A stretch of DNA of 37,114 nt from a virus, in UHGV virus genome UHGV-0042115. One strand, written 5' to 3'. Position numbers and translations under genes: made by a program. The notes below the pieces were generated by a model. That model searched no databases, had not been told where the DNA came from, and saw only the letters and a list, made by a program, of their open reading frames with translations. Shown one piece after another: positions 603-33,625 of the stretch (within the stretch, counting starts at the first letter, position 1; every line of letters starts with the position of its first letter).

Positions 603-616
603 AACAAAAAACCCAT
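603..616. other. attL core (AACAAAAAACCCAT)
   Basis: Identical 14-mer found at 33612-33625; located between rcdA stop and int stop. Confidence 0.6.
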
Positions 617-635
617 TTATGTAAACTGGTTAATG

Positions 636-667
636 AAAACAATAAGTTAGAGTAAAAACAATAAGTT
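636..667. repeat. Two direct 13-bp repeats AAAACAATAAGTT (636-648, 655-667); candidate integrase arm-type binding sites
   Basis: Perfect direct repeat 19 bp apart, between att core and int 3' end. Confidence 0.4.
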
Positions 668-687
668 GGGTTGGTGGTCAGTGGTGG

Positions 688-1743
688 TTATGACGGGGTA
701 ATGCCAACCGCTGCCGCCACTTTGTCGCCACTTGGCAGCGTTGCCAGAGGATTGAAACGGAGCGCCGTTTCCAGATGATCCGGTGCCAGATGTGCGTAAC
801 GCATCGTCATTTTTATATCGTGATGTCCGAGAATTTTTTGTAAGGCCAGGATGTTTCCACCCGACATCATGAAGTGCGCCGCAAACGTATGGCGCAGAAC
901 GTGTGTCAGTTGACCGCGAGGGAGCACGATAGACGTTTTTTCCATCACGGATAAAAATTGAAAATAGCAGTCTGTGAAGAAATTGAACCCATCAAGCGCC
1001 ATGATCTCTTCGTAAAGCTCTTTACTGATAGGGATGCTTCTGTTTTTCTTCCCCTTCGTTCTTACAAAGGTAATTCGGTATTTGGTCACCTGTGAGCGGG
1101 TAAGATTTACGGCTTCACGCCAGCGTGCGCCTGTGCTTAAGCATATCTTGACTACCAGTGCCAGAATTGGGTCCTGACGTTTGCAATCAGCCAGTAATTC
1201 AACAATCTGCTCATGGGTAAGCCATGCCATCTCTTTTTCTGCGATGGTGAATTTTCGCATGTTCTCCAGTGGGTTCGGATACGACCATTCGCCCAGGCGG
1301 GATAGTTCGCTAAAAACACTACTTAGATAGCTTTGCTCCAGGTTAATGGTGACCGGGCTTGCTCCTTTCTTCCATTTCTCGCTGAAGTAGATCTCTCCTG
1401 TCAGGCGTTTATCTCGATAGTGGGCAAACATTTTAGATGTGAGATCGGTTGCAAGGGGATTGCCCAGAGCGTCAACCATTAACAGCAGTTTGTCATAGAC
1501 ATGCTGGCCAGCTGTCAGAGATTTACCATGTAGTTTGAACCATAGTTCAACCACGTCTTTCAGTGTTCGACGATCCACTGATTCGCCCAGCTAGGGCTTT
1601 GCTTCGCTTTCTTCCATCGTGTGACGCTCAAAAGCCAGAGCTTCGCCTTTGGTAGCGAATTGTTTACGCACACGACGTCCGCTACGTCCGGCGGGGTAAC
1701 ATTCGCAAAGCCATTTTCCTGTGGTGAGTTTTCGTACTGCCAT
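688..1743 (-). pseudogene. int: Tyrosine integrase (P2/186 family) interrupted by in-frame TAG at codon 51
   Basis: Minus-strand ATG at 1743 gives MAVRKLTTGKWLCECYPAGRSGRRVRKQFATKGEALAFERHTMEESEAKP then TAG (1593..1591), then continues in frame as LGESVDRRTLKDV... to the C-terminal catalytic region (HxxR...Y: LRHTFAAHF...MRYAHLAP). Confidence 0.7.
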
Positions 1744-1767
1744 AAAAAAGCCCTCATATCAGAGGGC
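1744..1767 (-). terminator. Intrinsic-terminator-like hairpin (GCCCTC/GAGGGC stem, 6-nt loop) followed by U6 on the minus strand, ending 1 nt before the int ATG
   Basis: Stem 1750-1755 / 1762-1767; plus-strand A6 at 1744-1749 is U6 on the minus-strand transcript. Confidence 0.45.
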
Positions 1768-1834
1768 TAAATCTAACTGTATGTTTGAACAGTAGTCAAT
1801 GTATGATTTTATTCAATATATACATTGAAGAATA

Positions 1835-2386
1835 TTAAATTCTGTTTTGCAGACCTGATATAAAAATATTATAACTGTGTGAAAGATTTCCAGTGATTCT
1901 AAGGCACTTGCCTATTGCTCTTGATCCAGATACCTTTTGATAAGCGTATTTTGTCAGAGATACCAATTCTTGAGCTGCGTTACCAAGTCGATCAGGGTTA
2001 CGATATTTACTATTATTTTGAGATCGGGAAAGCCGCGGGATTCCTAAAGCTTCCTCGACAGACAATAAATCTCCAAGATACCAGCTTTCAAGCTCATGGC
2101 ATGCAATGCGTATTAAAACATCTGTTTTACCAGCCTTTGAGCAAATATCAGACAGTCTAGATTTAATTGTTGGACCATCTCCGCTATCTTTATCTCTAAT
2201 GACTACAAAAATAGTATCAGGAGTCATCCAGTTTTTTAATTTTTTCTCCAAGTTCTTTTCTAGATCCTGTTTACCTTCAAATACAATATATCGAGTGTCT
2301 GCATCTGCCGGAAGTAATCGAGGCAGTAATCCTTTCAGCATTTCTGCTGCAGATAATTCTTCTAGAAAGAAAGCATAAGTTGTCAT
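1835..2386 (-). CDS. Small Toprim-like protein (DUF4276-like by motif recollection), partner of the upstream ATPase
   Basis: 183 aa; motifs IVFEGKQD and VVIRDKDSGDG resemble Toprim E...DxD; start overlaps the ATPase stop (ATGA); AT-rich. Confidence 0.55.
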   Translation of the reverse strand: MTTYAFFLEELSAAEMLKGLLPRLLPADADTRYIVFEGKQDLEKNLEKKLKNWMTPDTIFVVIRDKDSGDGPTIKSRLSDICSKAGKTDVLIRIACHELESWYLGDLLSVEEALGIPRLSRSQNNSKYRNPDRLGNAAQELVSLTKYAYQKVSGSRAIGKCLRITGNLSHSYNIFISGLQNRI

Positions 2387-3582
2387 TGCGGATCAACTCC
2401 TGGGAAAAATCCTTGTTTCCATAAATATCCCATTTTATCTCCATCATTCATATAGGCTACAAGTTGAGGATCATCTGAAGCCCTGAAAGCACGAGTATAT
2501 CCATTGGTTTTAGTTAACCAGAAAACCTCATCAATATTTACTGCATTCAAGAAGTCTGGGGAATGTGTAGAAACAAATACTTGCCCTCCTCTCTGTGTAT
2601 AGGCTCTGAACTCCTCTGCTAATTCTACTAGCAGTTTTGGATATAGTTGATTTTCCGGCTCTTCGACACATAATAATGGATGAGGCTCAGGATCGTGTAA
2701 TTGTACTAAATATGCAAACATTTTTAATGTTCCATCAGATACATATCTATCGATAAAGGGATCTGCAAAGCTTCCATCTTGAAAACCTAATAATAAACGA
2801 CCATCTTGAGTGCTTATCGGTTTAACATCAGAAACTCCGGGAACTCTATGTTTCATTGAGTCAATAATTTTAGAAAATATTTCAGGATAATTATCGTGGA
2901 TGTTTCGTGCAACTAACTGTAAATTATCGCCAGTTGCAGAAAGATGGTCTTCATATCCAATAGCATCTTTTGATCCCCTAGCTGCATTGATATGAAAGTC
3001 GGAAACATGCCAATTTTCAATTAACTGCCTGAAAGCACTGGCTGCTTTAAATTTACTAAATTGACCTAACCCTTTGATTGCTAAAACATCATCAGAATCA
3101 AGCTGCTGAGTCTCTCTGTTTAGTTCTTCATCTTGTTTACTGAAATCATCTTCATTAACAATCGCAGTACCATGGCCTCTGGAGAAGTCCAAAAAGTGAT
3201 AAGGCGAGCCAAAGGAACCTCTTTTATATCTCAAGATTTCTCTTTCAACATAAACTTTTTTCCTAGAATCTTCTTTAAGTTTTAGAATATAAGTAACTAA
3301 TCGTTCATACCCACTTATTTCAATACGAAATTTTACTTCAATCTCTATTGTCCGGTCGGTAACATCCACTCCACGGCTCAGAAGTTCTTCAAAACCTCCT
3401 CTTTTCTGAACAGCACTTCTCACATTGAAAGTAAGACAATCTTTCAGAAAGCCAAACACATCAAAAAGAGTAGTTTTTCCTACGCCGTTTGCCCCGACAA
3501 TAACACAAAATTTGGGGATATTGTTCATCTCAAGATCTTGGAACGACTTGAAATTTTTTAATTTTATGGCTTCAATTAACAT
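2383..3582 (-). CDS. ABC-type ATPase (OLD/AAA_15/AAA_21-like architecture)
   Basis: 399 aa; N-terminal Walker A GANGVGKTT, C-terminal Walker B LLCVEEPE and STHSP H-loop separated by ~250 aa; ATG 8 nt after the repressor stop with SD-like AGGA in between. Confidence 0.75.
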   Translation of the reverse strand: MLIEAIKLKNFKSFQDLEMNNIPKFCVIVGANGVGKTTLFDVFGFLKDCLTFNVRSAVQKRGGFEELLSRGVDVTDRTIEIEVKFRIEISGYERLVTYILKLKEDSRKKVYVEREILRYKRGSFGSPYHFLDFSRGHGTAIVNEDDFSKQDEELNRETQQLDSDDVLAIKGLGQFSKFKAASAFRQLIENWHVSDFHINAARGSKDAIGYEDHLSATGDNLQLVARNIHDNYPEIFSKIIDSMKHRVPGVSDVKPISTQDGRLLLGFQDGSFADPFIDRYVSDGTLKMFAYLVQLHDPEPHPLLCVEEPENQLYPKLLVELAEEFRAYTQRGGQVFVSTHSPDFLNAVNIDEVFWLTKTNGYTRAFRASDDPQLVAYMNDGDKMGYLWKQGFFPGVDPQ

Positions 3583-3590: not shown

Positions 3591-4484
3591 TTAATTGCTT
3601 TTATTGATGCTGGAAATGAATAAATAAACTCTAGCTACAAAATTGATATCAGAAAAACCACATTCAAAGCTATTTATGGAGGATGATACTTTTATCACCT
3701 TCTTAGGTAGTCTTGTAATATGCCGAATTGAATAGGTTTCATCGATATTGATGAGCCAGTGTCCATCCAATACATCAGTAATGTTTTGATCACAAATGTA
3801 TGTCATCAACCCGTCTTGAATGACAATTGGTGCTGAAAGATTAGCAGGTAAAAATGACGTATCGAAAATATATGAACCACACTCAACCATTTTTCCTGCA
3901 TTGAGATGAAATTTAGGCAGCTCTTTTACCAATGTTGTGAGAGAACTGTGCTTGCTGCCTTGCCCAGTGGCTAGCCATAAAAGAGAATTTCCTGTTTCCA
4001 ACGAGCATTTTATGATCCAATCAGCTGGGAAAGTGTCTCGTAAATATCTGTTTGCCATGGTGCTTTTAGATACATTCAAATGGTCGGCAAGTTCTTGTCT
4101 TGTTTTGAAGCCATACGCTTTCATTAGCCGGTCTATTGCATCACGTCCGCCTGAATCCAAATTCAGCAAGTTCCCAATAGGGTTCTCTTGATTATTGATT
4201 TGGGGAACATACTGAACCTTTGGTGCAGTTGCCTTTGACATGACCGATGCCTCTGTATTCTGAGGGAATGGTACGCCTTTTCCGAATGAGAGCCATTCGA
4301 TAGATGCACCCGTTTCAATTGCACACTGAATTACCCAGTCAGCAGGAAATACGTCACGCATCCAGCGCGTACCCATAGTGCTTGCAGATACGTTGAACTG
4401 CTCGCATAGAGCTTGCCTTGTCTTGAATCCATACGCCTCAAGCATGCGCGTTATGACTGCTTGTCCTCCGTTTTTGAAATTCAT
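3591..4484 (-). CDS. 186 CI-type immunity repressor with tandemly duplicated N-terminal DNA-binding domain
   Basis: 297 aa; two copies of the ...AYGFKTRQ.L...NVS.STM..R..RD.FPADW.I.C..ETG......WL..G.G module (aa 9-70 and 116-176) then a C-terminal domain; divergent from the apl/cII genes. Confidence 0.7.
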   Translation of the reverse strand: MNFKNGGQAVITRMLEAYGFKTRQALCEQFNVSASTMGTRWMRDVFPADWVIQCAIETGASIEWLSFGKGVPFPQNTEASVMSKATAPKVQYVPQINNQENPIGNLLNLDSGGRDAIDRLMKAYGFKTRQELADHLNVSKSTMANRYLRDTFPADWIIKCSLETGNSLLWLATGQGSKHSSLTTLVKELPKFHLNAGKMVECGSYIFDTSFLPANLSAPIVIQDGLMTYICDQNITDVLDGHWLINIDETYSIRHITRLPKKVIKVSSSINSFECGFSDINFVARVYLFISSINKSN

Positions 4485-4608: not shown

Positions 4609-4830
4609 ATGACTCCACATATTTCAATCACCTTAGCTGTCCCATCTGTGTCTATTGAGAAATACAGTGAACTGACTGGGTTATCTATCGATACTATCAA
4701 TGACATGCTGGCTGATGGCCGCCTTATTCGCCATCGTCTCCGTAAAGATAAAAAGCGAGAAAAGGTAATGATCAATATCGCTGCAATGACCGTTGATGCG
4801 CTCTCTGAATGCAATTTGAGTATTAACTAG
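4609..4830 (+). CDS. Apl/Cox-like small early protein (excision/regulatory); alternative start at 4537
   Basis: First rightward gene divergent from the repressor; GAGGA SD 10 nt before ATG 4609; small basic protein. Confidence 0.45.
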   Translation: MTPHISITLAVPSVSIEKYSELTGLSIDTINDMLADGRLIRHRLRKDKKREKVMINIAAMTVDALSECNLSIN

Positions 4831-4862: not shown

Positions 4863-5372
4863 ATGTTTGATTATCAAGTTTCCAAACATCCACATTTTGA
4901 TGAAGCCTGTCGTACATTCGCGCTGCGCCACAACCTGGTGCAACTGGCAGATCGTGCAGGCATGAATGTGCAGATTTTGCGTAACAAGCTGAACCCAGCT
5001 CAACCTCATTTATTAACCGCACCAGACATCTGGTTGCTTACCGATCTGACTGAAGATTCAACGCTGGTAGACGGTTTTCTGGCACAGATTCATTGTCTGC
5101 CATGTGTTCCGATTAATGAGGTGGCAAAAGAGAAATTGCCGCATTACGTCATGAGTGCAACTGCAGAGATCGGGCGTGTTGCTGCAGGTGCGGTATCTGG
5201 CGATGTAAAAACCAGTGCAGGTCGTCGTGATGCTATCAGCAGCATTAACTCTGTAACACGACTGATGGCGCTGGCTGCTGTTTCATTGCAGGCCCGTTTA
5301 CAGGCTAACCCGGCGATGGCGAGTGCAGTTGATACCGTGACTGGCCTCGGTGCTTCATTCGGTTTGCTGTGA
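4863..5372 (+). CDS. 186 CII-like regulatory protein
   Basis: 169 aa [45 protein letters not shown]... resembles 186 CII as I recall it; position after apl. Confidence 0.55.
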
Positions 5373-5379
5373 GGTGCTT

Positions 5380-5580
5380 ATGCTGACGAAAGAACCATCA
5401 TTTGCATCGCTGCTGGTAAAACAAAGTCCGGCAATGCACTACGGTCACGGCTGGATAATAGGTAAGGATGGTAAACGCTGGCATCCGTGCCGTTCACAAG
5501 ATGAATTGCTGGCAGAACTATCAACGAAAAAACGGGGGAACAAATGGCTATTGAAGGCGCTGCGGCGACTGTTCCATTAA
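5380..5580 (+). CDS. Small early-region protein (position of 186 fil)
   Basis: 66-aa ORF with GAGG SD; position only, no motif recognised. Confidence 0.3.
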   Translation: MLTKEPSFASLLVKQSPAMHYGHGWIIGKDGKRWHPCRSQDELLAELSTKKRGNKWLLKALRRLFH

Positions 5581-5885
5581 GCCCCGGTGAACGCCTGAAT
5601 GGACTTAATCACATTGCGGAGTTAAGGGCGAAAGTTTTTGGCCTGAATATTGAGTCAGAGCTTGAGCGGTTTATTAAAGATATGCGTGATCCACGGGATA
5701 TCAATAACGAACAAAATAAACGGGCACTGGCAGCCATATTCTTTATGGCAAAAATTCCGGCTGAACGTCATAGCATCAGCATTAATGAGCTGACCACTGA
5801 CGAAAAGCGGGAGTTGATTAAAGCAATGAATCATTTTCGTGCAGTGGTGAGCTTATTTCCCAGACGGCTAACCATGCCGAATTAA
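5544..5885 (+). CDS. Hypothetical early-region protein
   Basis: 113-aa ORF, ATG 5544 preceded by GGGGGAA; overlaps previous ORF end. Confidence 0.4.
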   Translation: MAIEGAAATVPLSPGERLNGLNHIAELRAKVFGLNIESELERFIKDMRDPRDINNEQNKRALAAIFFMAKIPAERHSISINELTTDEKRELIKAMNHFRAVVSLFPRRLTMPN

Positions 5886-5952
5886 CCAACTAATGAAATT
5901 CATGGCGTAAACCCGCCGGGCATCCCTTTATCTAAATTAAGGAGAGTTTATT

Positions 5953-6186
5953 ATGCGTAATATTGAAACCCTCAAGACTAAGACCGGACCGGATGACGCA
6001 GGGCTTAATATTTTACTGACAGAGGCTCGTCTGGAAGAACGCCGGGCAAGGGCTGAAGCAATGGCAGCTCGCCTTGATAGTCTGGCGTGTCATATTACAT
6101 CCCGCCAGCTAAACCACGTCGAAGCGGCAGAACTGCTGCGTGTGACTGCTGAAGCAATCCAGAACGAAGCGCAGGAGATCCACTAA
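5953..6186 (+). CDS. Hypothetical early-region protein
   Basis: 77-aa ORF with AAGGAGAG SD; stop overlaps the next start (TAATG). Confidence 0.45.
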   Translation: MRNIETLKTKTGPDDAGLNILLTEARLEERRARAEAMAARLDSLACHITSRQLNHVEAAELLRVTAEAIQNEAQEIH

Positions 6187-6413
6187 TGGCTGATGCAATG
6201 GATCTCGTACAGCAGCGCGTTGAAGAAGAACGCCAGCGCCATATCCGTGCTGCCCGTGCCAAAACGCCGGGCGTGTCACGCGTGCTTTGCATTGAATGTG
6301 AAGCGCCAATTCCGCCAGCAAGACGCCGCGTCATTCCGGGAGTGCAGCTTTGCATTACCTGCCAGGAAATCGCAGAGCTGAAAGGCAAACATTACAACGG
6401 AGGTGCTGTATGA
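6186..6413 (+). CDS. TraR/DksA-family C4 zinc-finger protein
   Basis: CIECEAPIPPARRRVIPGVQLCITCQ: CxxC-N17-CxxC motif typical of phage TraR-like proteins. Confidence 0.7.
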   Translation: MADAMDLVQQRVEEERQRHIRAARAKTPGVSRVLCIECEAPIPPARRRVIPGVQLCITCQEIAELKGKHYNGGAV

Positions 6414-7267
6414 GCACCATCCTGAAATGGGCGGGTAATAAAACCGCCATTATGTCCGAACTGAAAAAACATCTTCCTGCTGGCCCGCGACTGGTTGAAC
6501 CTTTCGCGGGTTCTTGTGCTGTGATGATGGCGACGGATTACCCCAGCTATCTGGTTGCGGATATTAATCCTGATTTAATCAACCTCTATAAAAAGGTTTC
6601 TGCTGATTGTGAGGCGTTTATATCTCGCGCCAGAGTTTTATTTGAGAACGCAAACAGGGAGGTGGCTTATTACAACATAAAGCAGGAGTTTAATTACTCA
6701 ACTGAAATTACTGATTTCATGAAAGCGGTATATTTCCTGTATCTCAATCGTCACGGTTACCGTGGGTTATGTCGCTATAACAAGAGCGGGCATTTCAACA
6801 TTCCCTACGGTAATTATAAAAATCCGTATTTCCCTGAAAAAGAAATTCGCGCATTTGCAGAGAAAGCCCAGCGAGCAACGTTTATCTGCGCCAGCTTTGA
6901 TGAAACGCTGGCGATGCTGCAGGTGGGGGATGTGGTGTATTGCGATCCGCCTTATGACGGTACGTTTTCCGGTTATCACACTGACGGCTTCACTGAAGAT
7001 GACCAGTATCACCTGGCATCCGTTCTTGAACATCGGTCATCAGAAGGACATCCCGTCATTGTTTCTAACAGTGACACATCCCTGATCCGTTCGCTGTATC
7101 GCAATTTTACTCACCACTACATCAAGGCAAAACGCAGCATCGGTGTGGCAGCTGGTGATAGTAAATCTGCAACAGAAATCATTGCTGTTTCCGGGGCGCG
7201 CTGCTGGGTGGGATTTGATCCTTCGCGTGGCGTAGATAGTTCTGCTGTGTACGAGGTGCGTGTATGA
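6410..7267 (+). CDS. DNA adenine methyltransferase (Dam-like, D12 class)
   Basis: Motifs [53 protein letters not shown]; GGAGG SD before ATG 6410. Confidence 0.88.
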
Positions 7268-9676
7268 GTCATGACGATATGAGCAACTCTAGCGGCTTTA
7301 ACGAGGCCGCTGCATCATTTTCATGGAACGGCCCGAAAAAGGCCATTAACCCTTATCTGGACCCGGCGGAATTTGCGCCGGAGTCTGCACTTTCAAACCT
7401 GATCACTCTGTATGCTGCCGATAACGAGCAGGAACAACTGCGCCGCGAGGCACTGAGTGAGCAGGTCTGGGAGCGTTATTTCTTTAATGAATCCCGTGAT
7501 CCTGTCCAGCGCGAAATGGAGCAGGATAAGCTCATTAGCCGCGCAAAGCTTGCGCATGAGCAGCAGCTTTTTAACCCGGACATGGTCATTCTGGCAGATG
7601 TCAGCGCCCAGCCTACCCACATCAGCAAGCCGCTGATGCAACGTATCGAATACTTCAGCAGCCTGGGCAGGCCAAAGGCTTATTCCCGCTATTTGCGTGA
7701 GACGATTAAGCCATGTCTGGAGCGACTGGATTGTGTACGCGACAGTCAGCTATCCGCTTCTTTCCGTTTTATGGCAAGCCATCAAGGGCTTGAGGGCCTG
7801 CTGATCCTGCCTGAAATGAGTCAGGATCAGGTAAAACGCCTGTCCACCCTGGTAGCTGCGCATATGAGCATGTGCCTTGATGCCGCTTGTGGCGATTTAT
7901 ATGCCACCGATGACGTTAAGCCAGAAGAAATCCGCAAGACATGGGAAAAGGTGGCAGCGGAAACCCTGCGACTGGATGTTATCCCGCCTGCGTTTGAGCA
8001 ACTCCGCCGGAAAAGAAACCGCCGCAAACCCGTGCCCTATGAACTCATACCGGGTTCGCTGGCACGTATGCTTTGCGCCGACTGGTGGTATCGAAAATTG
8101 TGGAAGATGCGTTGCGAATGGCGGGAAGAGCAGTTGCGTGCTGTCTGCCTGGTCAGCAAAAAAGCATCTCCCTATGTCAGCTATGAAGCCGTGACGCATA
8201 AACGTGAGCAGCGCCGTAAGTCGCTGGAGTTTTTCCGTTCTCATGAACTGGTGAACGAAGACGGCGACACGCTGGATATGGAAGATGTGGTAAACGCCAG
8301 CAGCAGCAACCCGGCACATCGCCGCAATGAGATGATGGCCTGTGTTAAAGGTCTGGAGCTTATCGCAGAAATGCGTGGTGACTGCGCCGTTTTCTACACT
8401 ATCACCTGTCCGTCACGTTTCCATTCCACGCTCAACAACGGCAGACCCAACCCGACCTGGACAAATGCGACGGTAAGACAAAGCAGCGATTATCTGGTCG
8501 GCATGTTTGCTGCATTTCGTAAGGCTATGCACAAAGCCGGGTTGCGCTGGTATGGCGTGCGGGTGGCTGAGCCGCACCATGACGGTACTGTGCACTGGCA
8601 TCTCATGTGTTTCATGCGCAAAAAAGACCGCCGCGCCATTACTGCATTGTTGCGTAAGTTTGCCATCCGTGAAGACCGCGAGGAACTGGGTAATAACACT
8701 GGTCCACGCTTTAAATCTGAGCTGATAAACCCACGCAAAGGAACACCGACAAGCTACATCGCGAAATACATCAGTAAGAACATTGACGGGCGTGGTCTGG
8801 CTGGCGAGATCAGCAAGGAAACGGGTAAATCCCTGCGTGATAATGCTGAATACGTTAATGCTTGGGCGTCTCTGCATCGTGTTCAGCAATTCCGCTTCTT
8901 TGGCATTCCGGGGCGTCAGGCTTACCGTGAACTGCGATTGCTGGCTGGTCAGGCGGCAAGGCAACAGGGGACAAAAAGCAGGTGCGCCGGTACTGGATAA
9001 CCCGCGCCTTGATGCCATCCTGGCTGCTGCTGATGCTGGTTGTTTTGCCACCTACATCATGAAGCAGGGCGGCGTACTGGTTCCCCGCAAATATCACCTT
9101 ATCAGAACAGCTTATGAAATTAACGAAGAGCCGACTGCTTATGGCGATCACGGTATTCGTATTTATGGCATCTGGTCACCCATTGTACAGGGCAAGATTT
9201 GCACTCATGCAGTGAAGTGGAAAATGGTTCGTAAGGCCGTTGACGTTCAGGAGGCGGCAGCCGACCAGGGCGCTTGCGCCCCTTGGACTCGTGGCAATAA
9301 CTGTCCCCTTGCTGAAAATTTGAACCAACAAGGGAAAGACAAATCAGCTGATGGGGACTCCAGAACGGATATTACCCGTATGAATGACAAGGAGTTGCAC
9401 GATTACCTGCACAGTATGAGCAAAAAAGAGCGCCGGGAACTGGCTGCAAGGTTACGCCAGGTGAAACCGAAACGGCGTAAAGACTACAAACAGCGAATTA
9501 CGGACCATCAGCGACAGCAGCTCGTCTATGAACTGAAGTCCAGGGGATTTGATGGCAGCGAGAAAGAAGTCGATTTGCTCCTTCGCGGCGGCAGTATTCC
9601 GTCAGGAGCAGGCCTGCGTATCTTCTATCGGAACCAGCGTCTGAAGGAAGATGATAAGTGGCGGAACCTGTATTAA
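7264..9676 (+). pseudogene. A: Replication initiator gpA-like (rolling-circle endonuclease), reading frame changes near 8963-8990
   Basis: First 578 codons end at TAA 8998-9000; the remaining ~230 codons continue in the +1 frame (…[17 protein letters not shown]…) to 9676; junction lies in a G4/A5 homopolymer region. Confidence 0.7.
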
Positions 9677-11894: not shown

Positions 11895-11898
11895 CAAA

Positions 11899-21624: not shown

Positions 21625-21628
21625 TCTT

Positions 21629-24120: not shown

Positions 24121-25868
24121 GCACAAAATTTTATACCCTGCTGACGGATATTGGCGCGGCGAAACTTGCCAGCGCCGCCGCGCTCGGTGTGCCGTTAAAA
24201 ATTACCCATATGGCGGTCGGCGATGGCGGCGGAACATTACCAACGCCGGACGCAAAGCAGACAGCACTGGTAAATGAGAAACGCCGGGCTGCGCTGAATA
24301 TGCTCTATATCGACCCGCAGAACAGCAGCCAGATTATTGCTGAACAGGTGATCCCTGAAAACGAGGGCGGTTGGTGGATACGTGAAGTGGGCCTGTTTGA
24401 TGAGTCCGGGGCATTGATTGCCGTGGGCAACTGCCCGGAAAGCTATAAGCCGCAACTGGCTGAAGGCAGCGGGCGTACCCAGACCGTGCGTATGGTGTTG
24501 ATTACCAGCAGCACGGACAATATCACCCTGAAAATCGACCCTGCCGTAGTGCTGGCAACCCGCAAGTATGTGGATGACAAAATATCAGAGCACGAACAGT
24601 CACGACGTCACCCGGACGCCTCGCTGACCGCAAAGGGTTTTACTCAGTTAAGCAGTGCGACCAACAGTGAATCCGAAATACTGGCCGCAACACCGAAGGC
24701 TGTGAAGGCTGCATATGATCTTGCAGCAGGTAAAGCATCCGCCAGTCACACACACCCGTGGAATCAGATAACGGATGTGCCTGCAGCTTCACTGACGGTA
24801 AAAGGCACCGTGCAACTCAGCAGCGCCACTAACAGCACGTCAGAAACGCAGGCTGCCACACCAAAGGCAGTGAAGGCGGCATATGACCTTGCAGCAGGTA
24901 AGGCACCTGTCAGTCACACGCACCCGTGGAGCCAGATAACGGATGTGCCTGCAGCTTCACTGACGGTAAAAGGCACCGTGCAACTCAGCAGCGCCACTAA
25001 CAGCACGTTAGAAACGCAGGCTGCCACACCAAAAGCCGTGAAGGCTGTATATGACCTTGCCAATGGAAAACAACCTGCCGACGCCACACTGACCGCACTG
25101 GCAGGCCTTGCCACTGCGGCAGACAAACTTCCGTATTTTACGGGGAATGATACAGCCAGCCTGACAACCCTGACTAACGTTGGACGGAATATTCTGGATA
25201 AAGCAAGCACACAGGCGGTTATTCAATATCTTGGTCTGAGCGATGCAAGTGGATACGTTGGACGCTGGCTGAATACCCGGGTTTTCACCTCATCAGGTAC
25301 GTACACCCCGACGCCAGGAACAAAACGGATCAGGGTCACAATAACTGGCGGCGGTGGCGGTGGGGGCGGCTGCAAGGCTATATCCAATAATGAAACGTTT
25401 TTCGGTGCTGGCGGTGGGGCCGGTGGAACAATAATTTCAATAATGACCCCGACACAGAATAGTTATCCAGTCACTATCGGCGCAGGTGGGGCCGGTGGTG
25501 TTAGTGCGACGAACGGCACCAGTGGCGGGAATAGCGTATTTGCATCGTTAATTGCTCCTGGTGGCGCAGGTGGCGGGAAAGTGGGAGTTACAAATACAAA
25601 CGGCGGTAACGGAGGTGTGCCGAGTACTGGCGATATCCGCATCACTGGTGGAAATGGAGGCGACGGTCAGTCCGGAAATATCAGCGTCAGCGGTGAAGGC
25701 GGAACATCGTACTGGGGTGGCGGTGGACGCGCAGGCGCTGGCGGTGGCGTTAGCGGTAAGGCATATGGTTCAGGCGGAGGTGGTGCATACGATGCCGGTT
25801 ATAGCGGAACCAGTATGACGGGCGGGAAAGGCGCTGCAGGGATTTGTATTATCGAGGAGTTTGCATAA
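24117..25868 (+). CDS. H: Tail fiber protein H with internal tandem repeats and glycine-rich C-terminal domain
   Basis: Conserved P2 H-like N-terminus (MSTKFYTLLTDIGAAKLA...); repeats and Gly-rich C-terminus described separately. Confidence 0.85.
   Translation: MSTKFYTLLTDIGAAKLASAAALGVPLKITHMAVGDGGGTLPTPDAKQTALVNEKRRAALNMLYIDPQNSSQIIAEQVIPENEGGWWIREVGLFDESGALIAVGNCPESYKPQLAEGSGRTQTVRMVLITSSTDNITLKIDPAVVLATRKYVDDKISEHEQSRRHPDASLTAKGFTQLSSATNSESEILAATPKAVKAAYDLAAGKASASHTHPWNQITDVPAASLTVKGTVQLSSATNSTSETQAATPKAVKAAYDLAAGKAPVSHTHPWSQITDVPAASLTVKGTVQLSSATNSTLETQAATPKAVKAVYDLANGKQPADATLTALAGLATAADKLPYFTGNDTASLTTLTNVGRNILDKASTQAVIQYLGLSDASGYVGRWLNTRVFTSSGTYTPTPGTKRIRVTITGGGGGGGGCKAISNNETFFGAGGGAGGTIISIMTPTQNSYPVTIGAGGAGGVSATNGTSGGNSVFASLIAPGGAGGGKVGVTNTNGGNGGVPSTGDIRITGGNGGDGQSGNISVSGEGGTSYWGGGGRAGAGGGVSGKAYGSGGGGAYDAGYSGTSMTGGKGAAGICIIEEFA
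24617..25075 (+). repeat. Three tandem ~168-bp (56-aa) repeats within the tail fiber gene
   Basis: Unit ...ASLTVKGTVQLSSATNSTSETQAATPKAVKAAYDLAAGKA.VSHTHPW.QITDVPA...; copies 2 and 3 nearly identical at nucleotide level (period 24773 to 24941). Confidence 0.7.
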
Positions 25869-26387: not shown

Positions 26388-27560
26388 ATGGCTCAGGATT
26401 ACCACCACGGAGTGCGCGTTGTTGAAGTCAACGAAGGCACTCGATCCATTACCACGGTGAGCACCGCCATCGTGGGCATGGTCTGCACGGGCGATGATGC
26501 CGATGCAAAAATGTTCCCTCTTAATAAACCCGTGCTGATCACTGATGTGCTTACTGCCAGCGGTAAGGCGGGTGAATCCGGTACGCTGGCCCGTTCGCTG
26601 GATGCCATCGCTGACCAGGCAAAACCCGTGACCGTTGTTGTGCGTGTGCCGCAGGGTGAAACGGAAGAAGAAACCACGACCAATATCATCGGCGCAGTGA
26701 CTGCTGAAGGTAAAAAAACTGGTATGAAAGCCCTGTTATCTGCCCAGTCACAGCTCGGTGTTAAACCGCGCATTCTCGGCGTGCCGGGGCACGATAATAA
26801 AGCCGTTGCTACTGAGTTGCTGGGCGTGGCGCAAAGCCTGCGTGGGTTTGCTTACCTGTCAGCGTATGGCTGCAAGACGGTGCAGGAGGCGATCACTTAC
26901 CGTAAAAACTTCAGTCAGCGTGAAGGGATGCTGATTTGGCCTGACTTTACTGGCTGGGACACGGTGCTGAATGCCGACGCAACGGCATATGCCACCGCCC
27001 GTGCGCTTGGTCTGCGTGCCAAAATTGATGAGCAGACAGGGTGGCACAAAAGCCTGTCCAACGTGGGCGTGAACGGTGTCACCGGAATTTCTGCTGATGT
27101 GTTCTGGGATCTGCAGGACCCGGCAACTGATGCGGGACTGCTTAACCAGAACGATGTTACCACACTTATCCGCAAAGACGGCTTTCGCTTCTGGGGTTCC
27201 CGCTGTCTGAGTGATGACCCACTCTTTGCCTTTGAAAACTACACCCGCACGGCGCAGGTGCTGATGGACACGATGGCAGAAGCGCCAATGTGGGCGGTCG
27301 ACAAACCGCTGAATCCGTCGCTGGCCCGCGACATTATCGAAGGTATCCGCGCCAAAATGCGCAGCCTGATCAGTCAGGGCTATCTCATTGGTGGCGATTG
27401 CTGGCTGGATGAGTCGGTGAACGACAAAGACACTCTGAAAGCTGGAAAACTCACCATCGACTACGACTACACACCAGTGCCGCCACTTGAAAACCTGATG
27501 CTGCGTCAGCGCATCACCGATCAGTACCTGGTGAATTTCGCCAGCCAGGTCAGCGCGTAA
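26388..27560 (+). CDS. FI: Tail sheath protein FI
   Basis: 390 aa; AGGAGG SD; P2 FI-like. Confidence 0.9.
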
Positions 27561-27569
27561 GGGGACAAC

Positions 27570-28085
27570 ATGGCTTTACCACGCAAATTAAAACACCTCA
27601 ACCTGTTTAACGACGGGAACAACTGGCAGGGGATCGTTGAGTCGCTGACGCTGCCGAAATTCACCCGCAAATATGAGAAGTATCGCGGCGGCGGAATGCC
27701 GGGAGCAGTGGATGTGGATCTGGGGCTTGATGACAGTGCGCTGGACACAGAATTTTCCATTGGTGGTACTGAACTGCTGCTGTTTAAGCAGATGGGCAAA
27801 GCCACGGTGGATGGCATCCAGTTGCGCTTTACCGGCTCTATCCAGCGTGATGATACCGGGGAAGTGCAGGCCGTGGAGCTTGTGGTGCGTGGACGTCACA
27901 AAGAAGTGGATTCCGGCGAGTGGAAGACGGGCGAAAGCAACACCACCAAAGTGACCAGTACCAACAGCTACGCGAAGCTGACTATCAATGGTGAGGTGCT
28001 CTATGAAGTGGACCTTATCAACATGGTGGAAATTGTGGACGGTGTGGACCTGATGGAAGCGCACCGCAACGCCCTCGGCCTCTGA
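27570..28085 (+). CDS. FII: Tail tube protein FII
   Basis: 171 aa; P2 FII-like. Confidence 0.9.
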   Translation: MALPRKLKHLNLFNDGNNWQGIVESLTLPKFTRKYEKYRGGGMPGAVDVDLGLDDSALDTEFSIGGTELLLFKQMGKATVDGIQLRFTGSIQRDDTGEVQAVELVVRGRHKEVDSGEWKTGESNTTKVTSTNSYAKLTINGEVLYEVDLINMVEIVDGVDLMEAHRNALGL

Positions 28086-28139
28086 TGTATCTGAACGGCG
28101 CGGAATGCCGCGCCAGAACCTAATTTACAGGACAGCAAA

Positions 28140-28442
28140 ATGAGCGATAAGCAGACTGAAAAGACCATTCAACTGGATACCCCCATCATGCGTGGTAAAA
28201 CTGAAATCACCGAAATTGTGCTGCGTAAACCGCAGTCCGGTGCGCTGCGCGGTACACGCCTGCAGGCCATTATGGATATGGATGTGAACGCGATGATGAC
28301 CGTGATCCCCCGCATCTCCAGCCCGGCGCTGACTGCACAGGAAATTGCAGAGATGGACCCGGCAGATCTCACTGCCATGTCGGTTGAGGTTGTCACTTTT
28401 TTGTTGAAGAAGTCGGTGCTTGCCGGTTTACCGACAGCCTGA
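28140..28442 (+). CDS. E: Tail assembly chaperone E
   Basis: 100 aa, immediately upstream of tape measure. Confidence 0.8.
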   Translation: MSDKQTEKTIQLDTPIMRGKTEITEIVLRKPQSGALRGTRLQAIMDMDVNAMMTVIPRISSPALTAQEIAEMDPADLTAMSVEVVTFLLKKSVLAGLPTA

Positions 28443-28576
28443 CGGTTGATGATCTGGTGGCAGATATCGCCACCATTTTTCACTGGCCGCCATCCGTTAC
28501 TGACGTTATGCCGCTGACCGAAGTGCTGGAATGGCGGTATAAAGCGATTCAGAGAAGCGGGGCCAACGATGAGTGA
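28140..28576 (+). CDS. E+E' extended product via -1 frameshift at T TTT TTG (28397-28403)
   Basis: Slippery heptamer inside E; the -1 frame is open from 28403 to TGA 28574-28576, overlapping the T start, as in P2 E/E+E'. Confidence 0.6.
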
Positions 28577-31500
28577 TAATAACCTGCGCCTGCAGGTCAT
28601 TCTTAATGCGGTTGACAAACTCACCCGCCCATTCCGTGCTGCACAGGCCAGTTCGAAAGAGCTGGCTGGCGCAATCAGAAACTCCCGTGACGCATTAAAG
28701 CAACTCAATCAGGCGGGTAACAACCTGGAAAAATTTCGCAAGCTGCAGGCCGATAACAAAAAGTTAGGCGACAGGCTGAACTATGCCAGACAGAAGGCAA
28801 ATTTGCTTAGTTCTGAGCTGGAAGCGATGGAACAACCATCACAAAGGCATCTTGTGGCTTTAGGTCGGCAAACGCTGGCAGTCCAACGCCTGGAAGAACA
28901 ACAAAAATATTTGCAGAAGCAAACGGCGCTTGTGCGTGCAGAACTGTACCGGGCGGGAATTTCTGCGAAAGATGATGCGGGAGCAACTGCCCGTTTAGCC
29001 CGTGAAACATCACGTTATAACCAGGAATTGTCGAAACAGGAGGCGCGGCTGAAGCGACTGGGGGAAGCTCAGCGCAGGATGAATGCAGCGCGTGCCAGTT
29101 ATGCCCGTTCGCTGGAGGTGCGCGATCGCATCGCAGGAGCCGGAGCCACTACTACGGCTGCAGGGCTGGCAATGGGGACGCCAGTGATGGCGGCAGTAAA
29201 AAGCTATACCAGCATGGAAGATGCCATGAAAGGTGTGGCAAAGCAGGTCAATGGTCTGCGTGACGATAATGGCATCCGCACTGCACGTTTTTATGAAATG
29301 CAGGATGCCATCAAAGCTGCCAGCGAACAGTTGCCGATGGAAAACGGTGCGGTGGACTTCGCTGCACTGGTTGAAGGTGGTGCGCGTATGAACGTCGCAA
29401 ACCCTGACGACAGCTGGGAAGACCAGAAACGTGACCTGCTGGCCTTCGCCAGTACGGCAGCAAAGGCGGCAACAGCCTTTGAGCTGCCAGCGGATGAACT
29501 GTCAGAAAGTCTGGGGAAAATCGCCCAGCTCTACAAAATACCAACCCGCAATATTGAACAGCTCGGCGATGCGCTGAACTATCTGGATGATAACGCCATG
29601 TCGAAAGGGGCGGACATCATTGATGTGATGCAACGTCTGGGCGGTGTGGCTGACCGTCTGGATTATCGTAAAGCGGCGGCACTGGGTTCCACCTTTCTGA
29701 CACTGGGCGCTGCGCCGGAGGTTGCAGCCAGTGCAGCAAACGCGATGGTGCGTGAATTGTCCATTGCCACCATGCAAAGCAAGAGTTTCTTTGAAGGAAT
29801 GAATCTGCTGAAACTCAATCCTGAAGTGATTGAAAAGCAGATGACGAAGGATGCGATGGGAACTATCCAGCGCGTGCTGGAGAAGGTGAACGCACTGCCG
29901 CAGGACAAGCGTCTGTCTGCCATGACCATGTTGTTTGGTAAAGAGTTTGGCGATGACGCGGCGAAACTGGCAAACAACCTGCCGGAACTGCAGCGTCAGT
30001 TAAAACTGACAGCGGGCAATGATGCGCTCGGCTCCATGCAGAAAGAATCCGACATTAACAAGGATTCACTTTCTGCGCAGTGGTTGCTGGTCAAAACCGG
30101 AGCGCAGAACACCTTCAGCAGCCTGGGCGAAACGCTGCGCCAGCCGCTGATGGATATTCTGTACACGGTGAAAAGCGTCACGGGGGCGTTGCGTCGCTGG
30201 GTGGAAGCTAACCCGGAACTGACAGGCACACTGATGAAAGCATCGGCTGTTGTGGCTGCGGTGACCGTCGGCCTCGGCACCTTAGCGGTGGCGCTGGCTG
30301 CAGTGCTGGGGCCGCTGGCAGTGATCCGTCTGGGATTCTCTGTGCTGGGTATCAAAACGTTACCTTCCGTTACGGCAGCAGTAACTCGAACCAGCAGCGC
30401 GTTGTCCTGGCTGGCTGGCGCACCACTGGTACTGCTGCGACGCGGGCTTGCTTCATCGGGCAACGCTGCGGGGTTACTTACTGCACCGTTGTCATCTTTG
30501 CGCCGCACGGCATCACTGACGGGAAATGTCCTGAAAACTGTAGCAGGTGCGCCGGTTGCACTTTTGCGGTCTGGATTATCCGGTTTACGTGCTGTTGCTG
30601 TGATGTTTATGAATCCTCTGGCGGTACTGCGCGGTGGACTGGTCGCCGCAGGCACGGTGCTGCGAGTACTGGCATCTGGTCCACTGGCGATGCTGCGCGT
30701 TGCCCTGTATGCCGTATCTGGTCTGTTAGGTGCTCTGCTCAGTCCGATAGGTCTTGTGGTTACTGCACTGGCGGGCGTGGCGCTGGTTGTCTGGAAATAC
30801 TGGCAACCCATCACCGCATTTCTTGGTGGCGTGGTGGAAGGATTCAAAGCGGCGGCAGGTCCCGTCAGTGCAGCATTCGAACCGCTTAAGCCCGTGTTCC
30901 AGTGGATTGGCGACAAAGTACAGGCGCTGTGGGGCTGGTTTACTGATCTGCTGACGCCCGTTAAGTCGACCTCTGCCGAACTGCAGAGTGCAGCGGCAAT
31001 GGGGCGGCGATTCGGGGAGGCACTGGCGGAAGGGCTGAATATGGTCATGCATCCGCTGGACTCCCTGAAATCCGGCGTTTCCTGGTTGCTGGAGAAGCTC
31101 GGCATTGTCAGTAAAGAGGCCGCAAAGGCAAAACTGCCGGAAAGCGTGACGCGTCAGCAACCTGCGACGGTGAATGCAGACGGTAAAGTGATGATGCCAT
31201 CGGGTGGTTTTCCATCATGGGGATATGGCTTTGCGGGGATGTATGACAGCGGCGGCTATATCCCGCGCGGGCAGTTTGGCATCGTCGGTGAAAACGGGCC
31301 GGAAATTGTTAACGGCCCGGCAAATGTGACCAGCCGGAGAAATACAGCTGCACTGGCTGCCGTTGTTGCCGGAATGATGGGCGTTGCTGCCGCGCCTGCA
31401 GAGCTTCCACCGTTGCACCCTTTGGCACTTCCCGCGAAAGGCGGCGAAGCGATGGTGAGTCGTGCAGCCACTGTGCCGCCCGTTCAACGGATTGAGGCAC

Positions 31501-31646
31501 CGATGCAGATCATCATTCAGACGCAGCCAGGACAAAGTGCGCAGGATATTGCGCGGGAGGTGGCCCGCCAGCTTGATGAACGTGAACGCAGGCTGAAGGC
31601 AAAAGCCAGGAGTAACTACAGCGATCAGGGGGGATACGACGCATGA
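28569..31646 (+). CDS. T: Tail tape measure protein T
   Basis: 1025 aa; position after E/E'. Confidence 0.9.
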   Translation: MSDNNLRLQVILNAVDKLTRPFRAAQASSKELAGAIRNSRDALKQLNQAGNNLEKFRKLQADNKKLGDRLNYARQKANLLSSELEAMEQPSQRHLVALGRQTLAVQRLEEQQKYLQKQTALVRAELYRAGISAKDDAGATARLARETSRYNQELSKQEARLKRLGEAQRRMNAARASYARSLEVRDRIAGAGATTTAAGLAMGTPVMAAVKSYTSMEDAMKGVAKQVNGLRDDNGIRTARFYEMQDAIKAASEQLPMENGAVDFAALVEGGARMNVANPDDSWEDQKRDLLAFASTAAKAATAFELPADELSESLGKIAQLYKIPTRNIEQLGDALNYLDDNAMSKGADIIDVMQRLGGVADRLDYRKAAALGSTFLTLGAAPEVAASAANAMVRELSIATMQSKSFFEGMNLLKLNPEVIEKQMTKDAMGTIQRVLEKVNALPQDKRLSAMTMLFGKEFGDDAAKLANNLPELQRQLKLTAGNDALGSMQKESDINKDSLSAQWLLVKTGAQNTFSSLGETLRQPLMDILYTVKSVTGALRRWVEANPELTGTLMKASAVVAAVTVGLGTLAVALAAVLGPLAVIRLGFSVLGIKTLPSVTAAVTRTSSALSWLAGAPLVLLRRGLASSGNAAGLLTAPLSSLRRTASLTGNVLKTVAGAPVALLRSGLSGLRAVAVMFMNPLAVLRGGLVAAGTVLRVLASGPLAMLRVALYAVSGLLGALLSPIGLVVTALAGVALVVWKYWQPITAFLGGVVEGFKAAAGPVSAAFEPLKPVFQWIGDKVQALWGWFTDLLTPVKSTSAELQSAAAMGRRFGEALAEGLNMVMHPLDSLKSGVSWLLEKLGIVSKEAAKAKLPESVTRQQPATVNADGKVMMPSGGFPSWGYGFAGMYDSGGYIPRGQFGIVGENGPEIVNGPANVTSRRNTAALAAVVAGMMGVAAAPAELPPLHPLALPAKGGEAMVSRAATVPPVQRIEAPMQIIIQTQPGQSAQDIAREVARQLDERERRLKAKARSNYSDQGGYDA

Positions 31647-32128
31647 TGATGGTGCTGGGATTGTACGTGTTTATGCTGCGCACCGTGCCGTATCAGGAAT
31701 TGCAGTATCAACGCAGTTGGCGACATGCGGCAAACAGCCGGGTAAACCGTCGTCCGTCCACGCAGTTTCTGGGACCGGAAAACGACATGCTGACGCTTTC
31801 CGGTGTTCTTATGCCGGAGATAACAGGCGGCAGGCTGTCGTTGCTGGCACTTGAGCAGATGGCAGAACAGGGGAAAGCATGGCCTCTGATTGAAGGCAGC
31901 GGCACGATTTACGGCATGTATGTGATTGAGGGACTGAATCAGACTAAAACGGAGTTTTTCCGCGACGGTATGCCGCGCCGGATTGAGTTCACCCTGTCGC
32001 TCAAACGGGTGGATGAATCCCTGTCCGATATGTTCGGTGATCTCAGTGCGCAGCTGAATAATCTGCAGGGAACGGCAACATCTGCCTTAAGCGATATCAG
32101 TAAAACGGTGGGAGGGCTTCTGTCGTGA
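31643..32128 (+). CDS. U: Tail protein U
   Basis: 161 aa; P2 U-like position. Confidence 0.8.
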   Translation: MMMVLGLYVFMLRTVPYQELQYQRSWRHAANSRVNRRPSTQFLGPENDMLTLSGVLMPEITGGRLSLLALEQMAEQGKAWPLIEGSGTIYGMYVIEGLNQTKTEFFRDGMPRRIEFTLSLKRVDESLSDMFGDLSAQLNNLQGTATSALSDISKTVGGLLS

Positions 32129-33225
32129 ATTTCAGCTCTGAACTGCTTAACAAAGGCAACAAAACTCCCGCATTCAGCATCAGTATTGAGGGCAGGGATA
32201 TCACCACTGTGCTGGACAACCGCCTGATTGGGCTGACGCTGACGGATAACCGGGGATTTGAAGCGGACCAGCTTGATCTGGAACTGGACGACGCCGATGG
32301 AAAAATCGTGCTGCCGCGCCGTGGTGCGGTCATTACGCTGGCGCTGGGCTGGAAGGGGCAGCCGCTTTTCCCGAAAGGGGCATTCACGGTGGACGAGATT
32401 GAACACACTGGCGCACCGGACCGCCTGACTATCCGGGCGCGAAGTGCTGATTTTCGGGAAACCCTGAATACCCGCCGTGAAAAATCGTGGCATAACACCA
32501 CCATCGGGGAAGTGGTGAAGGAAATAGCCGCGCGGCACAAGCTGAAGATGGCACTGGGTAAAGAGCTGTCGGATAAGCCCGTGGAGCATATAGACCAGAC
32601 TAATGAGAGTGACGGCAGTTTTCTGATGCGACTGGCGCGACAGTACGGTGCCATCGCGTCGGTGAAAAATGGCAATCTGTTATTCATCCGGCAGGGGCAG
32701 GGCAAAAGCGCCACTGGTAAACCACTGCCAGTGATCACTATCACACGCAAGGACGGCGACAGTCACCGATTTACCCTGGCAGATCGCGGAGCCTACACGG
32801 GCGTAATTGCCAGCTGGTTGCATACCCGTGAACCCGCGAAGAAAGAAAGCACCACGGTGAAGCGTAAGCGCAGAACTAAGAAGCAGAAGAAAGAGCCGGA
32901 AGCGAAGCAGGGCGATTACCTGGTGGGTACGGATGAAAACGTGCTGGTACTTAATCGCACCTATGCCAACCGGGGCAACGCTGAACGGGCAGCGAAAATG
33001 CAGTGGGAACGTCTGCAACGCGGCGTTGCGTCATTCTCGCTACAACTGGCGGAAGGGCGGGCAGATCTCTACACGGAAATGCCTGTGAAGGTCAGTGGTT
33101 TTAAACAGCCGATAGATGATGCGGAATGGACCATTACGACTCTGACACATACCGTCAGCCCGGATAACGGTTTTACGACCAGTCTGGAGCTTGAAGTGAG
33201 GATTGATGATTTCGAAATGGAATGA
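32125..33225 (+). CDS. D: Late gene D tail protein
   Basis: 366 aa; GTG start with GGGAGGG SD. Confidence 0.85.
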   Translation: MNFSSELLNKGNKTPAFSISIEGRDITTVLDNRLIGLTLTDNRGFEADQLDLELDDADGKIVLPRRGAVITLALGWKGQPLFPKGAFTVDEIEHTGAPDRLTIRARSADFRETLNTRREKSWHNTTIGEVVKEIAARHKLKMALGKELSDKPVEHIDQTNESDGSFLMRLARQYGAIASVKNGNLLFIRQGQGKSATGKPLPVITITRKDGDSHRFTLADRGAYTGVIASWLHTREPAKKESTTVKRKRRTKKQKKEPEAKQGDYLVGTDENVLVLNRTYANRGNAERAAKMQWERLQRGVASFSLQLAEGRADLYTEMPVKVSGFKQPIDDAEWTITTLTHTVSPDNGFTTSLELEVRIDDFEME

Positions 33226-33315
33226 TTCTTCGCAATGGAGAACTTTTAAGTTTGCAAAATGGAATAATGCGGTATCATTATTGTGAATTTAGCAAAAATG
33301 GGGAGAACTCGAAAA

Positions 33316-33534
33316 ATGATGATTTGCCCACTGTGTGGAAGTGCCGCCCATACTCGCAGCAGTTTTCAGGTATCTTCATTGACCAAAGAGCGTTACAACC
33401 AGTGCCAGAACATTAACTGCAGCCATACTTTTGTTACCCATGAAACTTTTGTTCGTTCGATTGCAACGCCAAAAGAGTCAAATCCGGTTCAGCCGCATCC
33501 AATGAAATCAGGACAGGTGGCGCTCTCTCTTTGA
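33316..33534 (+). CDS. ogr: Ogr-type zinc-finger late transcription activator
   Basis: 72 aa MMICPLCGSAAHTRSSFQVSSLTKERYNQCQNINCSHTF... with the Ogr CxxC...CxxxxC pattern; last phage gene before attR. Confidence 0.85.
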   Translation: MMICPLCGSAAHTRSSFQVSSLTKERYNQCQNINCSHTFVTHETFVRSIATPKESNPVQPHPMKSGQVALSL

Positions 33535-33611
33535 CGCTGCCGCCATTTTGTCGCCATCGTTAAAAAACAGTGCTTCTAACATCATGATTTTAAACAGCTT
33601 AAATTTCAGGC

Positions 33612-33625
33612 AACAAAAAACCCAT
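33612..33625. other. attR core (AACAAAAAACCCAT)
   Basis: Identical to 603-616. Confidence 0.6.

Follow-up and report, generated by a model that had tools for sequence, protein, structure and literature searches.

The DNA considered here is the 37,114-nucleotide stretch UHGV-0042115, called the window at its full length. It is contig ADWT01000014.1 of GCA_000179135.1, the 2010 Human Microbiome Project draft of E. coli MS 124-1, and its positions 603-33625 hold a 33-kb, Fels-2-like prophage of the P2/186 family flanked by rcdA and ybjL. We believe it very likely that this is a complete Fels-2/186-type (Peduoviridae) prophage with a single genuine defect, an amber codon at W51 of the integrase gene int, and that the lesions read in the replication gene A and in an open reading frame (ORF) of the SOS operon are homopolymer miscalls of the draft. 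The element has already been annotated, and it is an ordinary prophage of a known kind with known cargo. The amber has probably impaired its excision and in that sense 'grounded' it.

A first-pass annotation made from the letters of the window had proposed three independent hits on mobility and replication in an immobilised prophage kept for its defence cargo, or alternatively three sequencing errors. It was correct about the element, its ends at 603 and 33625 and its gene content. The three lesions are indeed in the text of the window: an int TAG at 1591-1593, a frame change in A near 8971, and a run of eight T at 9873-9880. Only the int amber survives comparison with a sister isolate, with run assemblies and with relatives. 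The idea of an immobilised prophage is therefore right in that the amber is real and excision probably impaired, but its cargo-retention part finds no support; the idea of sequencing errors holds for A and the tum-region ORF and fails for int, where the amber is reproducible. The genes concerned are these:

688..1743, minus strand: int pseudogene, W51*, marked 'internal stop' by the Prokaryotic Genome Annotation Pipeline (PGAP); intact relatives have 350 amino acids (aa)
7264..9676, plus strand: gpA replication endonuclease, true product 804 aa (Pfam Phage_GPA)
9829..10018, plus strand: 62-aa TumA-like ORF (phrog_698), whose product is cut to 18 aa by T8 in the window versus T7 at 9873-9880

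The most direct comparison is with E. coli MS 85-1, since the whole window aligns end to end with its chromosome, NZ_CP146650.1. MS 124-1 (ADWT) is a small-bowel isolate from a Crohn's disease patient and MS 85-1 (ADWQ) an ileal isolate from the same collection (PMC8741296). Outside the tail-fibre repeats there are 0 substitutions between the two. There are exactly three indels, all in homopolymers: G4/G5 at 8971, A5/A6 at 8973, and T8/T7 at 9873-9880. The only other difference is in gene H, whose 168-bp repeats have collapsed by 336 bp.

In the window, A is split into ORFs 7264-9000 and 8783-9676, and the site between them reads GGGG-AC-AAAAA, short by one G and one A in adjacent runs. We used seven comparators for the A and tum sites (MS 85-1, SW071618, Z226-7, Fels-2, 813R9, RE-2010 and Cartapus). 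All seven have two more bases here and an open A gene of 804-810 aa, and the protein WP_000017613.1 is identical in MS 85-1, SW071618 and Z226-7. Once the two absent bases are restored, the 804-aa gpA, a rolling-circle replication endonuclease, is intact. The 578-aa frameshifted product (EFK68877.1) occurs on one contig only in a collection of 153 billion genes, and that contig is ADWT01000014.1 itself. The extra T at 9873-9880 is likewise absent from 7/7 comparators and from both informative Logan assemblies.

Logan assemblies are assemblies of independent sequencing runs, and we read those of ERR8651325, SRR088925 and SRR088909. The first two carry the amber int together with a full 804-aa A and an intact 62-aa ORF, and otherwise equal the window. 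The SRR088909 assembly stops exactly at window position 8972 and differs in T-run length at 2237 and 3261, which is the signature of homopolymer-prone data. Across the assemblies of the MS clone, the A and tum indels are the sole differences besides other run-length differences and the collapsed tail-fibre repeat. The A frame change and the tum-region T8 are almost certainly homopolymer miscalls of the 2010 MS 124-1 draft. It is important to realize that homopolymer artefacts of pyrosequencing-era drafts can mimic prophage decay.

The 2010-era Logan assemblies (L015, L016) show only homopolymer differences more against the window, at 2237, 3261 and 9742: T6/T5 changes inside the HEC-01 cargo genes and an A7/A6 change ahead of the LexA box. 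Such noise in run length is general in these data sets and can fake frameshifts in cargo genes too.

The int amber is a different matter. The frame reads ...SEAKP*LGES, with TAG at codon 51 on the minus strand, and PGAP flags the same internal stop in the complete genome of MS 85-1. This int allele is found in 7/5426 complete E. coli genomes; one of the seven has the amber, and the exact 61-mer around the stop occurs only in MS 85-1. The other six have TGG at codon 51, SW071618, Z226-7, 14EC029, GPEC60-12-649 and F1022 among them. Split int fragments (50 aa + 296 aa) are on 5 Logan contigs and the intact 350-aa allele on 624, and the three amber-int Logan contigs that we read match the window at every substituted position. 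Because the change is a substitution, and because it is present in the assemblies of two named isolates as well as in Logan assemblies from at least three runs, the amber is not a sequencing error. The TGG to TAG change at W51 is reproducible and is the sole genuine lesion.

Integrases of the λ/P2 type use their N-terminal residues to bind arm sites that are required for att recombination. Pfam places the Int_N core-binding domain from residue 57, with the catalytic domain next. A stop at 51 therefore leaves only the presumptive arm-binding N-terminus.

How the amber arose can be suggested from its context. Read on the plus strand, CCAGG has become CTAGG; the base affected is the inner, methylated cytosine of a Dcm site. 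Deamination of 5-methylcytosine is a classic source of mutation hotspots. The same W51 TAG is found in GZ2408P (NZ_CM172482.1, L013 980-2011), in an int allele 95.8% identical to ours that PGAP also marks with an internal stop. That gene has another neighbourhood and another 3' end, and its bases differ 10-28 bp either side of the amber codon. That two alleles have the W51 amber, both times at the inner C of CCAGG, suggests that deamination at a hotspot has repeatedly disabled integrases of this family. Coulondre and Miller reportedly found lacI amber hotspots at CCAGG that arise by deamination of Dcm 5-methylcytosine. The likeness is close, an inner-C C-to-T change giving TAG, here recurring in a second divergent allele; the difference is that the evidence for the int site is comparative only. 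Such Dcm-site ambers may be predictable points of prophage immobilisation.

Two further alleles of the integrase family (P0064 and P0076) are called as fragments of 67 aa that stop immediately ahead of Trp68; they occur on 152 and 18 contigs. Trp-to-stop changes close to the N-terminus seem to recur in this family. The MS clone also has a stop-loss at 692, by which the int C-terminus gains one Ser, and a substitution at 627, between the att core and the pair of 13-nt repeats described below.

The apparently split tum gene was counted as a lesion in the first-pass annotation. This is a misreading of a layout that is normal in these phages. Besides the 62-aa ORF, the operon consists of:

9769..9788, plus strand: LexA box TACTGTAAATATAAACAGTG, read from sequence, at a position equivalent to p95/LexA of phage 186
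10029..10262, plus strand: DinI-like (TumB-like) gene (Pfam DinI, 6.6e-23), 100% identical to the RE-2010 protein

The CTG-N10-CAG core of the LexA box lies at 9771-9786. The 62-aa ORF matches phrog_698 over its full length, and at least 1000 contigs encode exactly its product. After a further 10 nt the DinI-like gene begins, in a different frame and with its own ribosome-binding site (GAGG); its product shows 41% identity to the part of 186 Tum that spans residues 71-145. The pair, a 189-nt ORF and a 234-nt DinI gene, is annotated in Fels-2, RE-2010, 813R9 and Cartapus. A passage of Lemire et al. 2011, citing Bunny et al. 2002, has the tum region in two parts in Fels-2 and PSP3 (PMC3121763). 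The two-gene layout is thus the native arrangement of functional phages such as Fels-2 and PSP3. The window does not have the fused 186-type Tum, one ORF of 146 aa, but two ORFs that match the split Fels-2/PSP3 type. The other components of a 186-type SOS-inducible switch are present as well (Phage_CI_repr/Phage_CI_C, Phage_CP76, phrog_575 and the LexA box). We also considered the 62-aa ORF as the severed N-terminal half of a 186-type tum. This is ruled out: the ORF has its own PHROG family, and no similarity between its protein and the N-terminal half of 186 Tum is detectable. Both this split layout and the 'partial' call that PGAP gives to the tail-fibre assembly gene are easily mistaken for damage.

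With these corrections a working scheme can be proposed by analogy with 186, Fels-2 and PSP3. The tandem helix-turn-helix (HTH) CI repressor, co-transcribed with the HEC-01 pair and int, would keep the prophage silent. After DNA damage LexA would leave its box at 9769-9788, and the TumA-like antirepressor and DinI-like protein would be made and CI inactivated. The early operon (apl, cII, fil, dam, A) would follow, and then the Ogr-dependent late genes. With the amber, translation of Int would end ahead of the core-binding and catalytic domains, and excision would be absent or very inefficient. By analogy with 186 and Fels-2, induction should still lead to replication and to killing and lysis of the cell, but release few phages if any.

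Several points weigh against parts of this account. MS 124-1 and MS 85-1 are separately named isolates, and the run lengths read at the A and tum sites have a small chance of being genuine in MS 124-1 alone. The failure of excision is read from sequence; read-through of the UAG, a suppressor tRNA or a restart product might leave activity. The arm-site role of the 13-nt repeats, the function of 11170-11195 as cos and the antirepressor role of the 62-aa ORF are putative, drawn from homology and position. As for the cargo, the study that defined HEC-01 saw no protection, and this is its only published test.

The alternative that best survives is a leaky amber, where read-through, a host suppressor or a restarted Int gives low-frequency excision and the phage stays mobile at a reduced rate. 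We consider this unlikely, although there are points in its favor. The rest of what a lytic cycle requires is intact, integrase is needed only catalytically as a matter of general knowledge, and a candidate restart codon, GTG at codon 56, lies 5 codons past the stop at the Int_N boundary. However, a product restarted there would be without the first 55 residues, the part that binds arm sites in integrases of this type, and on inspection of the sequence there is no obvious Shine-Dalgarno ahead of the GTG.

A grounded and domesticated prophage, with all three lesions real and selection for the defence cargo, is highly improbable. It is true that the window contains all three lesions, and that the cargo genes are intact and match models of defence systems. 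It is also true that 3 of the 6 substitutions specific to the MS clone in the left 10.6 kb fall within the 1.14-kb attL-int segment (post-hoc binomial P ~0.02). That clustering is compatible with slightly relaxed constraint after a nonsense mutation, but it is too weak to claim. Against this, two of the lesions are homopolymer indels missing from the sister isolate, the run assemblies and all relatives, and the amber allele is confined to a single clone (1/7 complete genomes; 5 versus 624 contigs). The same cargo proteins sit in sister prophages whose int is intact, and HEC-01 is unvalidated as defence. Lysis, replication and induction genes would be expected to go first in domestication, yet all are intact here. 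What one expects of a domesticated prophage, several lesions, loss of killing functions and persistence across a clade, is not what we see. The profile is not a domesticated one: the element still has its SOS trigger, its early operon and replicase, the late activator, the packaging genes with a putative cos, and the whole lysis cassette. A defective prophage, one with a loss-of-function lesion in a gene for excision, replication or particles, is what we do see, by virtue of the int amber alone. We infer a recently 'locked-in' yet still dangerous element rather than a domesticated one.

A more elaborate idea is that the amber at the Dcm site is a reversible, recurrent 'lock', where deamination turns the integrase off and reversion or read-through turns it on, with GZ2408P as a second instance. 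If this were true, lineages with the lock would alternate between a phage that can move and an element that is fixed in the chromosome with its defence genes. We find it barely credible. Finally, there is next to no chance that this is a fully active phage with all three lesions, the int amber included, as sequencing errors: two of the three are errors and the draft is error-prone at homopolymers, but the amber is no run-length change, it recurs in the assemblies of both isolates and of at least three runs, and PGAP calls the internal stop in a complete genome.

We return to the preferred reading, a complete prophage with one real defect, and to the rest of the element that supports the word complete. 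Its ends are marked by the following:

603..616, plus strand: attL core, 14-bp AACAAAAAACCCAT, exact direct repeat of 33612-33625
33612..33625, plus strand: attR core, AACAAAAAACCCAT, exact 14-bp direct repeat of 603-616
636..667, plus strand: two exact 13-nt direct repeats AAAACAATAAGTT, spacing 19, between att core and int stop

The 13-nt repeats are candidate Int arm-type sites; compare the arm-type sites annotated at the 186 attP. We looked for a tRNA-linked att site and found none, so this was ruled out.

The genome of Z226-7 gives a second view of integration. There the prophage (L003, 1019 and 36297) lies inside a gene for an FAD-binding protein and not between rcdA and ybjL. Its left arm is 99.8% identical to that of the window, with homology beginning at window position 613, and only CCAT-N-AACCTTGA is common to this secondary site and the primary attB. 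An active phage of the same lineage appears to have integrated here at a secondary site. Because the Int protein in Z226-7 is identical and sits at another chromosomal site, we take the lineage to be currently mobile.

The gene order is that of a P2/186-type phage. The lysogenic operon on the minus strand has int, the DUF4276 gene, the ABC/AAA_21 ATPase gene and cI. The early operon on the plus strand has apl/cox-like, cII, fil, DUF5347, DUF2732, traR-like, dam and A genes. After A come the LexA-boxed two-gene SOS operon, a DUF8087 gene, a cos-like block and then a phosphoribosyltransferase (PRTase) and DprA pair. The right part has P2-type Q/P, O-N-M-L, lysis, baseplate, H-G, sheath/tube, T, U, D and ogr. 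The repressor and early genes are:

3591..4484, minus strand: 186-type CI repressor, 297 aa, with duplicated N-terminal HTH (Pfam Phage_CI_repr x2 + Phage_CI_C)
4609..4830, plus strand: Apl/Cox-like excisionase-repressor (phrog_575, 1.9e-28; RefSeq coding sequence)
4863..7267, plus strand: early lytic operon of cII-like, fil, DUF5347, DUF2732, TraR/DksA-like and Dam methylase genes (RefSeq, Pfam)

Residues 106-297 of CI align with all of 186 CI, and residues 1-70 are 54% identical to the second HTH. The early operon proteins have full-length RE-2010 matches at 96-99%. Tandem-HTH CI is common, on hundreds of contigs from E. coli and Klebsiella, and some relatives have two separate CI genes.

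The cargo lies in two places, and the cos-like block stands just ahead of the second:

1835..2386, minus strand: DUF4276 protein, TOPRIM-like partner in the HEC-01 candidate pair (PADLOC 6.9e-75; Pfam DUF4276)
2383..3582, minus strand: ABC/AAA_21 ATPase of the HEC-01 candidate pair (PADLOC 1.6e-209; Pfam AAA_21, AAA_15)
11170..11195, plus strand: cos-like sequence GGCGTGGCGGGGATACGAGCGCGCGC, at the end of backbone homology
11319..11894, plus strand: ShosT, phosphoribosyltransferase toxin, 191 aa (PADLOC ShosT 3.7e-14)
11884..12858, plus strand: ShosA, DprA-like antitoxin, 324 aa (PADLOC ShosA 2.8e-70; Pfam DNA_processg_A; RefSeq coding sequence)

An ABC-type ATPase adjoining a DUF4276/TOPRIM-like protein is what makes the first pair an HEC-01 candidate. 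The accessions of CI and of both HEC-01 proteins are the same in the int-intact sister prophages; for the DUF4276 protein the same WP accession is found in SW071618 and Z226-7. The second pair is a ShosTA toxin-antitoxin system, with the ShosT and ShosA genes overlapping by 11 nt. Other E. coli prophages, one in E2348/69 among them, match its 2-kb region at 99.9-100% identity. Rousset et al. 2022 validated a DprA-PRTase system in the P2 cos-proximal hotspot against T7 and λ. The likeness to that hotspot is a PRTase and DprA-like pair between gpA/cos and gpQ, and we found no difference from it. ShosTA and HEC-01 are the standard accessory load of P2-family phages.

We considered whether ShosT is truncated or unannotated, which would make it a cargo lesion. 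This is ruled out, since upstream stops show that 191 aa is the full ORF and the 226-aa 'cluster mates' are unrelated sequences. The exact ShosT sequence is on at least 1000 contigs, and in every genome examined 11319-11894 is without a PGAP annotation.

The 26-nt cos-like block is identical in SW071618 and Z226-7, and identical and in the same position in Fels-2, RE-2010 and 813R9. The P2/186 cos consensus is matched over 18 nt, with 3 mismatches, a match that is 13% likely by chance. ShosA abuts Q, and cos might be thought lost for that reason. This too is ruled out: functional relatives have an identical block, and in the window it stands ahead of the cargo. A 90-aa ORF at 11062-11334 (phrog_28685) runs across the cos-like sequence and the boundary between backbone and cargo; it is not annotated by PGAP and may not be a gene.

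The structural genes follow:

12883..15674, minus strand: portal (Q) and terminase ATPase (P)
15817..24120, plus strand: capsid, head completion, lysis (holin, lysozyme, LysA-like, LysB/LysC) and baseplate, all full length
24117..25868, plus strand: tail fibre H, in frame, 583 aa versus 695 aa in the complete genome
25868..26281, plus strand: tail-fibre assembly protein, 137 aa (Pfam Caudo_TAP, positions 22-130 of 131, 3.2e-19)
26388..33225, plus strand: tail sheath, tube, E/E', tape measure, U and D
33316..33534, plus strand: Ogr/Delta-like late activator (Pfam Ogr_Delta 5e-22)

This is a P2-type morphogenesis and lysis module in the conserved order Q P / O N M L X holin lysozyme ... V W J I H G FI FII E T U D ogr, by tblastn with RE-2010 and by RefSeq annotation, and it places the element in the Peduoviridae. 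In the tblastn comparison all RE-2010 early, replication, head, lysis and tail proteins have full-length matches except G and the variable C-terminus of H. PGAP flags only int and the 'partial' tail-fibre assembly gene in the complete genome. Judged on their sequences, all genes other than int are intact, as is the cos-like site. The earlier statement that the cargo and the morphogenesis/lysis regions are intact holds, with the proviso that the H repeat is collapsed in the window: H is short by two 168-bp (56-aa) tandem repeats. Its C-terminus is glycine-rich.

The tail-fibre assembly gene, a partial pseudogene according to PGAP, was considered as a fourth lesion and rejected. The ORF overlaps the H stop (TAATG), and the Caudo_TAP domain that it encodes is complete. 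Its exact sequence occurs on 685 contigs, and the lytic jumbo phage Goslar has a homologue of it at full length with 63% identity. Sister prophages have a DNA invertase and an invertible fibre/assembly cassette that are absent from the element in the window.

The closest sequenced phages are Fels-2 and RE-2010 (Felsduovirus), vB_EcoM-813R9 and Klebsiella phage 4LV2017. All share with the window the gene order, an identical cos-like sequence and an SOS operon of two genes preceded by a LexA box. Protein identity to the Fels-2/RE-2010 group is 96-100% for cII, fil, dam, A and DinI, 80-97% for most head, lysis and tail proteins, and 61-75% for LysB, tape measure and Ogr. The group differs in its cargo (HEC-01 and ShosTA in the window), in the C-terminus of H and in the tail-fibre assembly cassette, the window being without an invertase. 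It also has another int and att, with 54% identity between the Int of RE-2010 and that of the window, whose gene bears the amber codon, and another CI, 74 aa as annotated in RE-2010 versus 297 aa with a tandem HTH here.

Coliphage 186 (Eganvirus) is more distant. The element shares with it a 186-type CI (32% identity over all of 186 CI), an Apl/Cox-like protein, CII (Phage_CP76), Fil, gpA, a LexA-controlled SOS operon after A and an Ogr/B-type activator. The differences are that 186 Tum is one 146-aa protein whereas the element has a separate DinI-like gene, that the CI here has an extra HTH domain, and that its att lies outside tRNA genes.

The flanking chromosome has a lesion of its own. In ybjC/nfsA (~36600-37114) there is a 92-bp deletion between two copies of CTGATGAACC, with the junction at 36770-36785. 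It takes the 3' end of ybjC plus the start codon and first ~19 codons of nfsA, and the remnants are out of frame. The nfsA gene encodes a nitroreductase, and its loss is the classical first step to nitrofuran resistance. In MS 85-1 both ybjC and nfsA are marked partial by PGAP.

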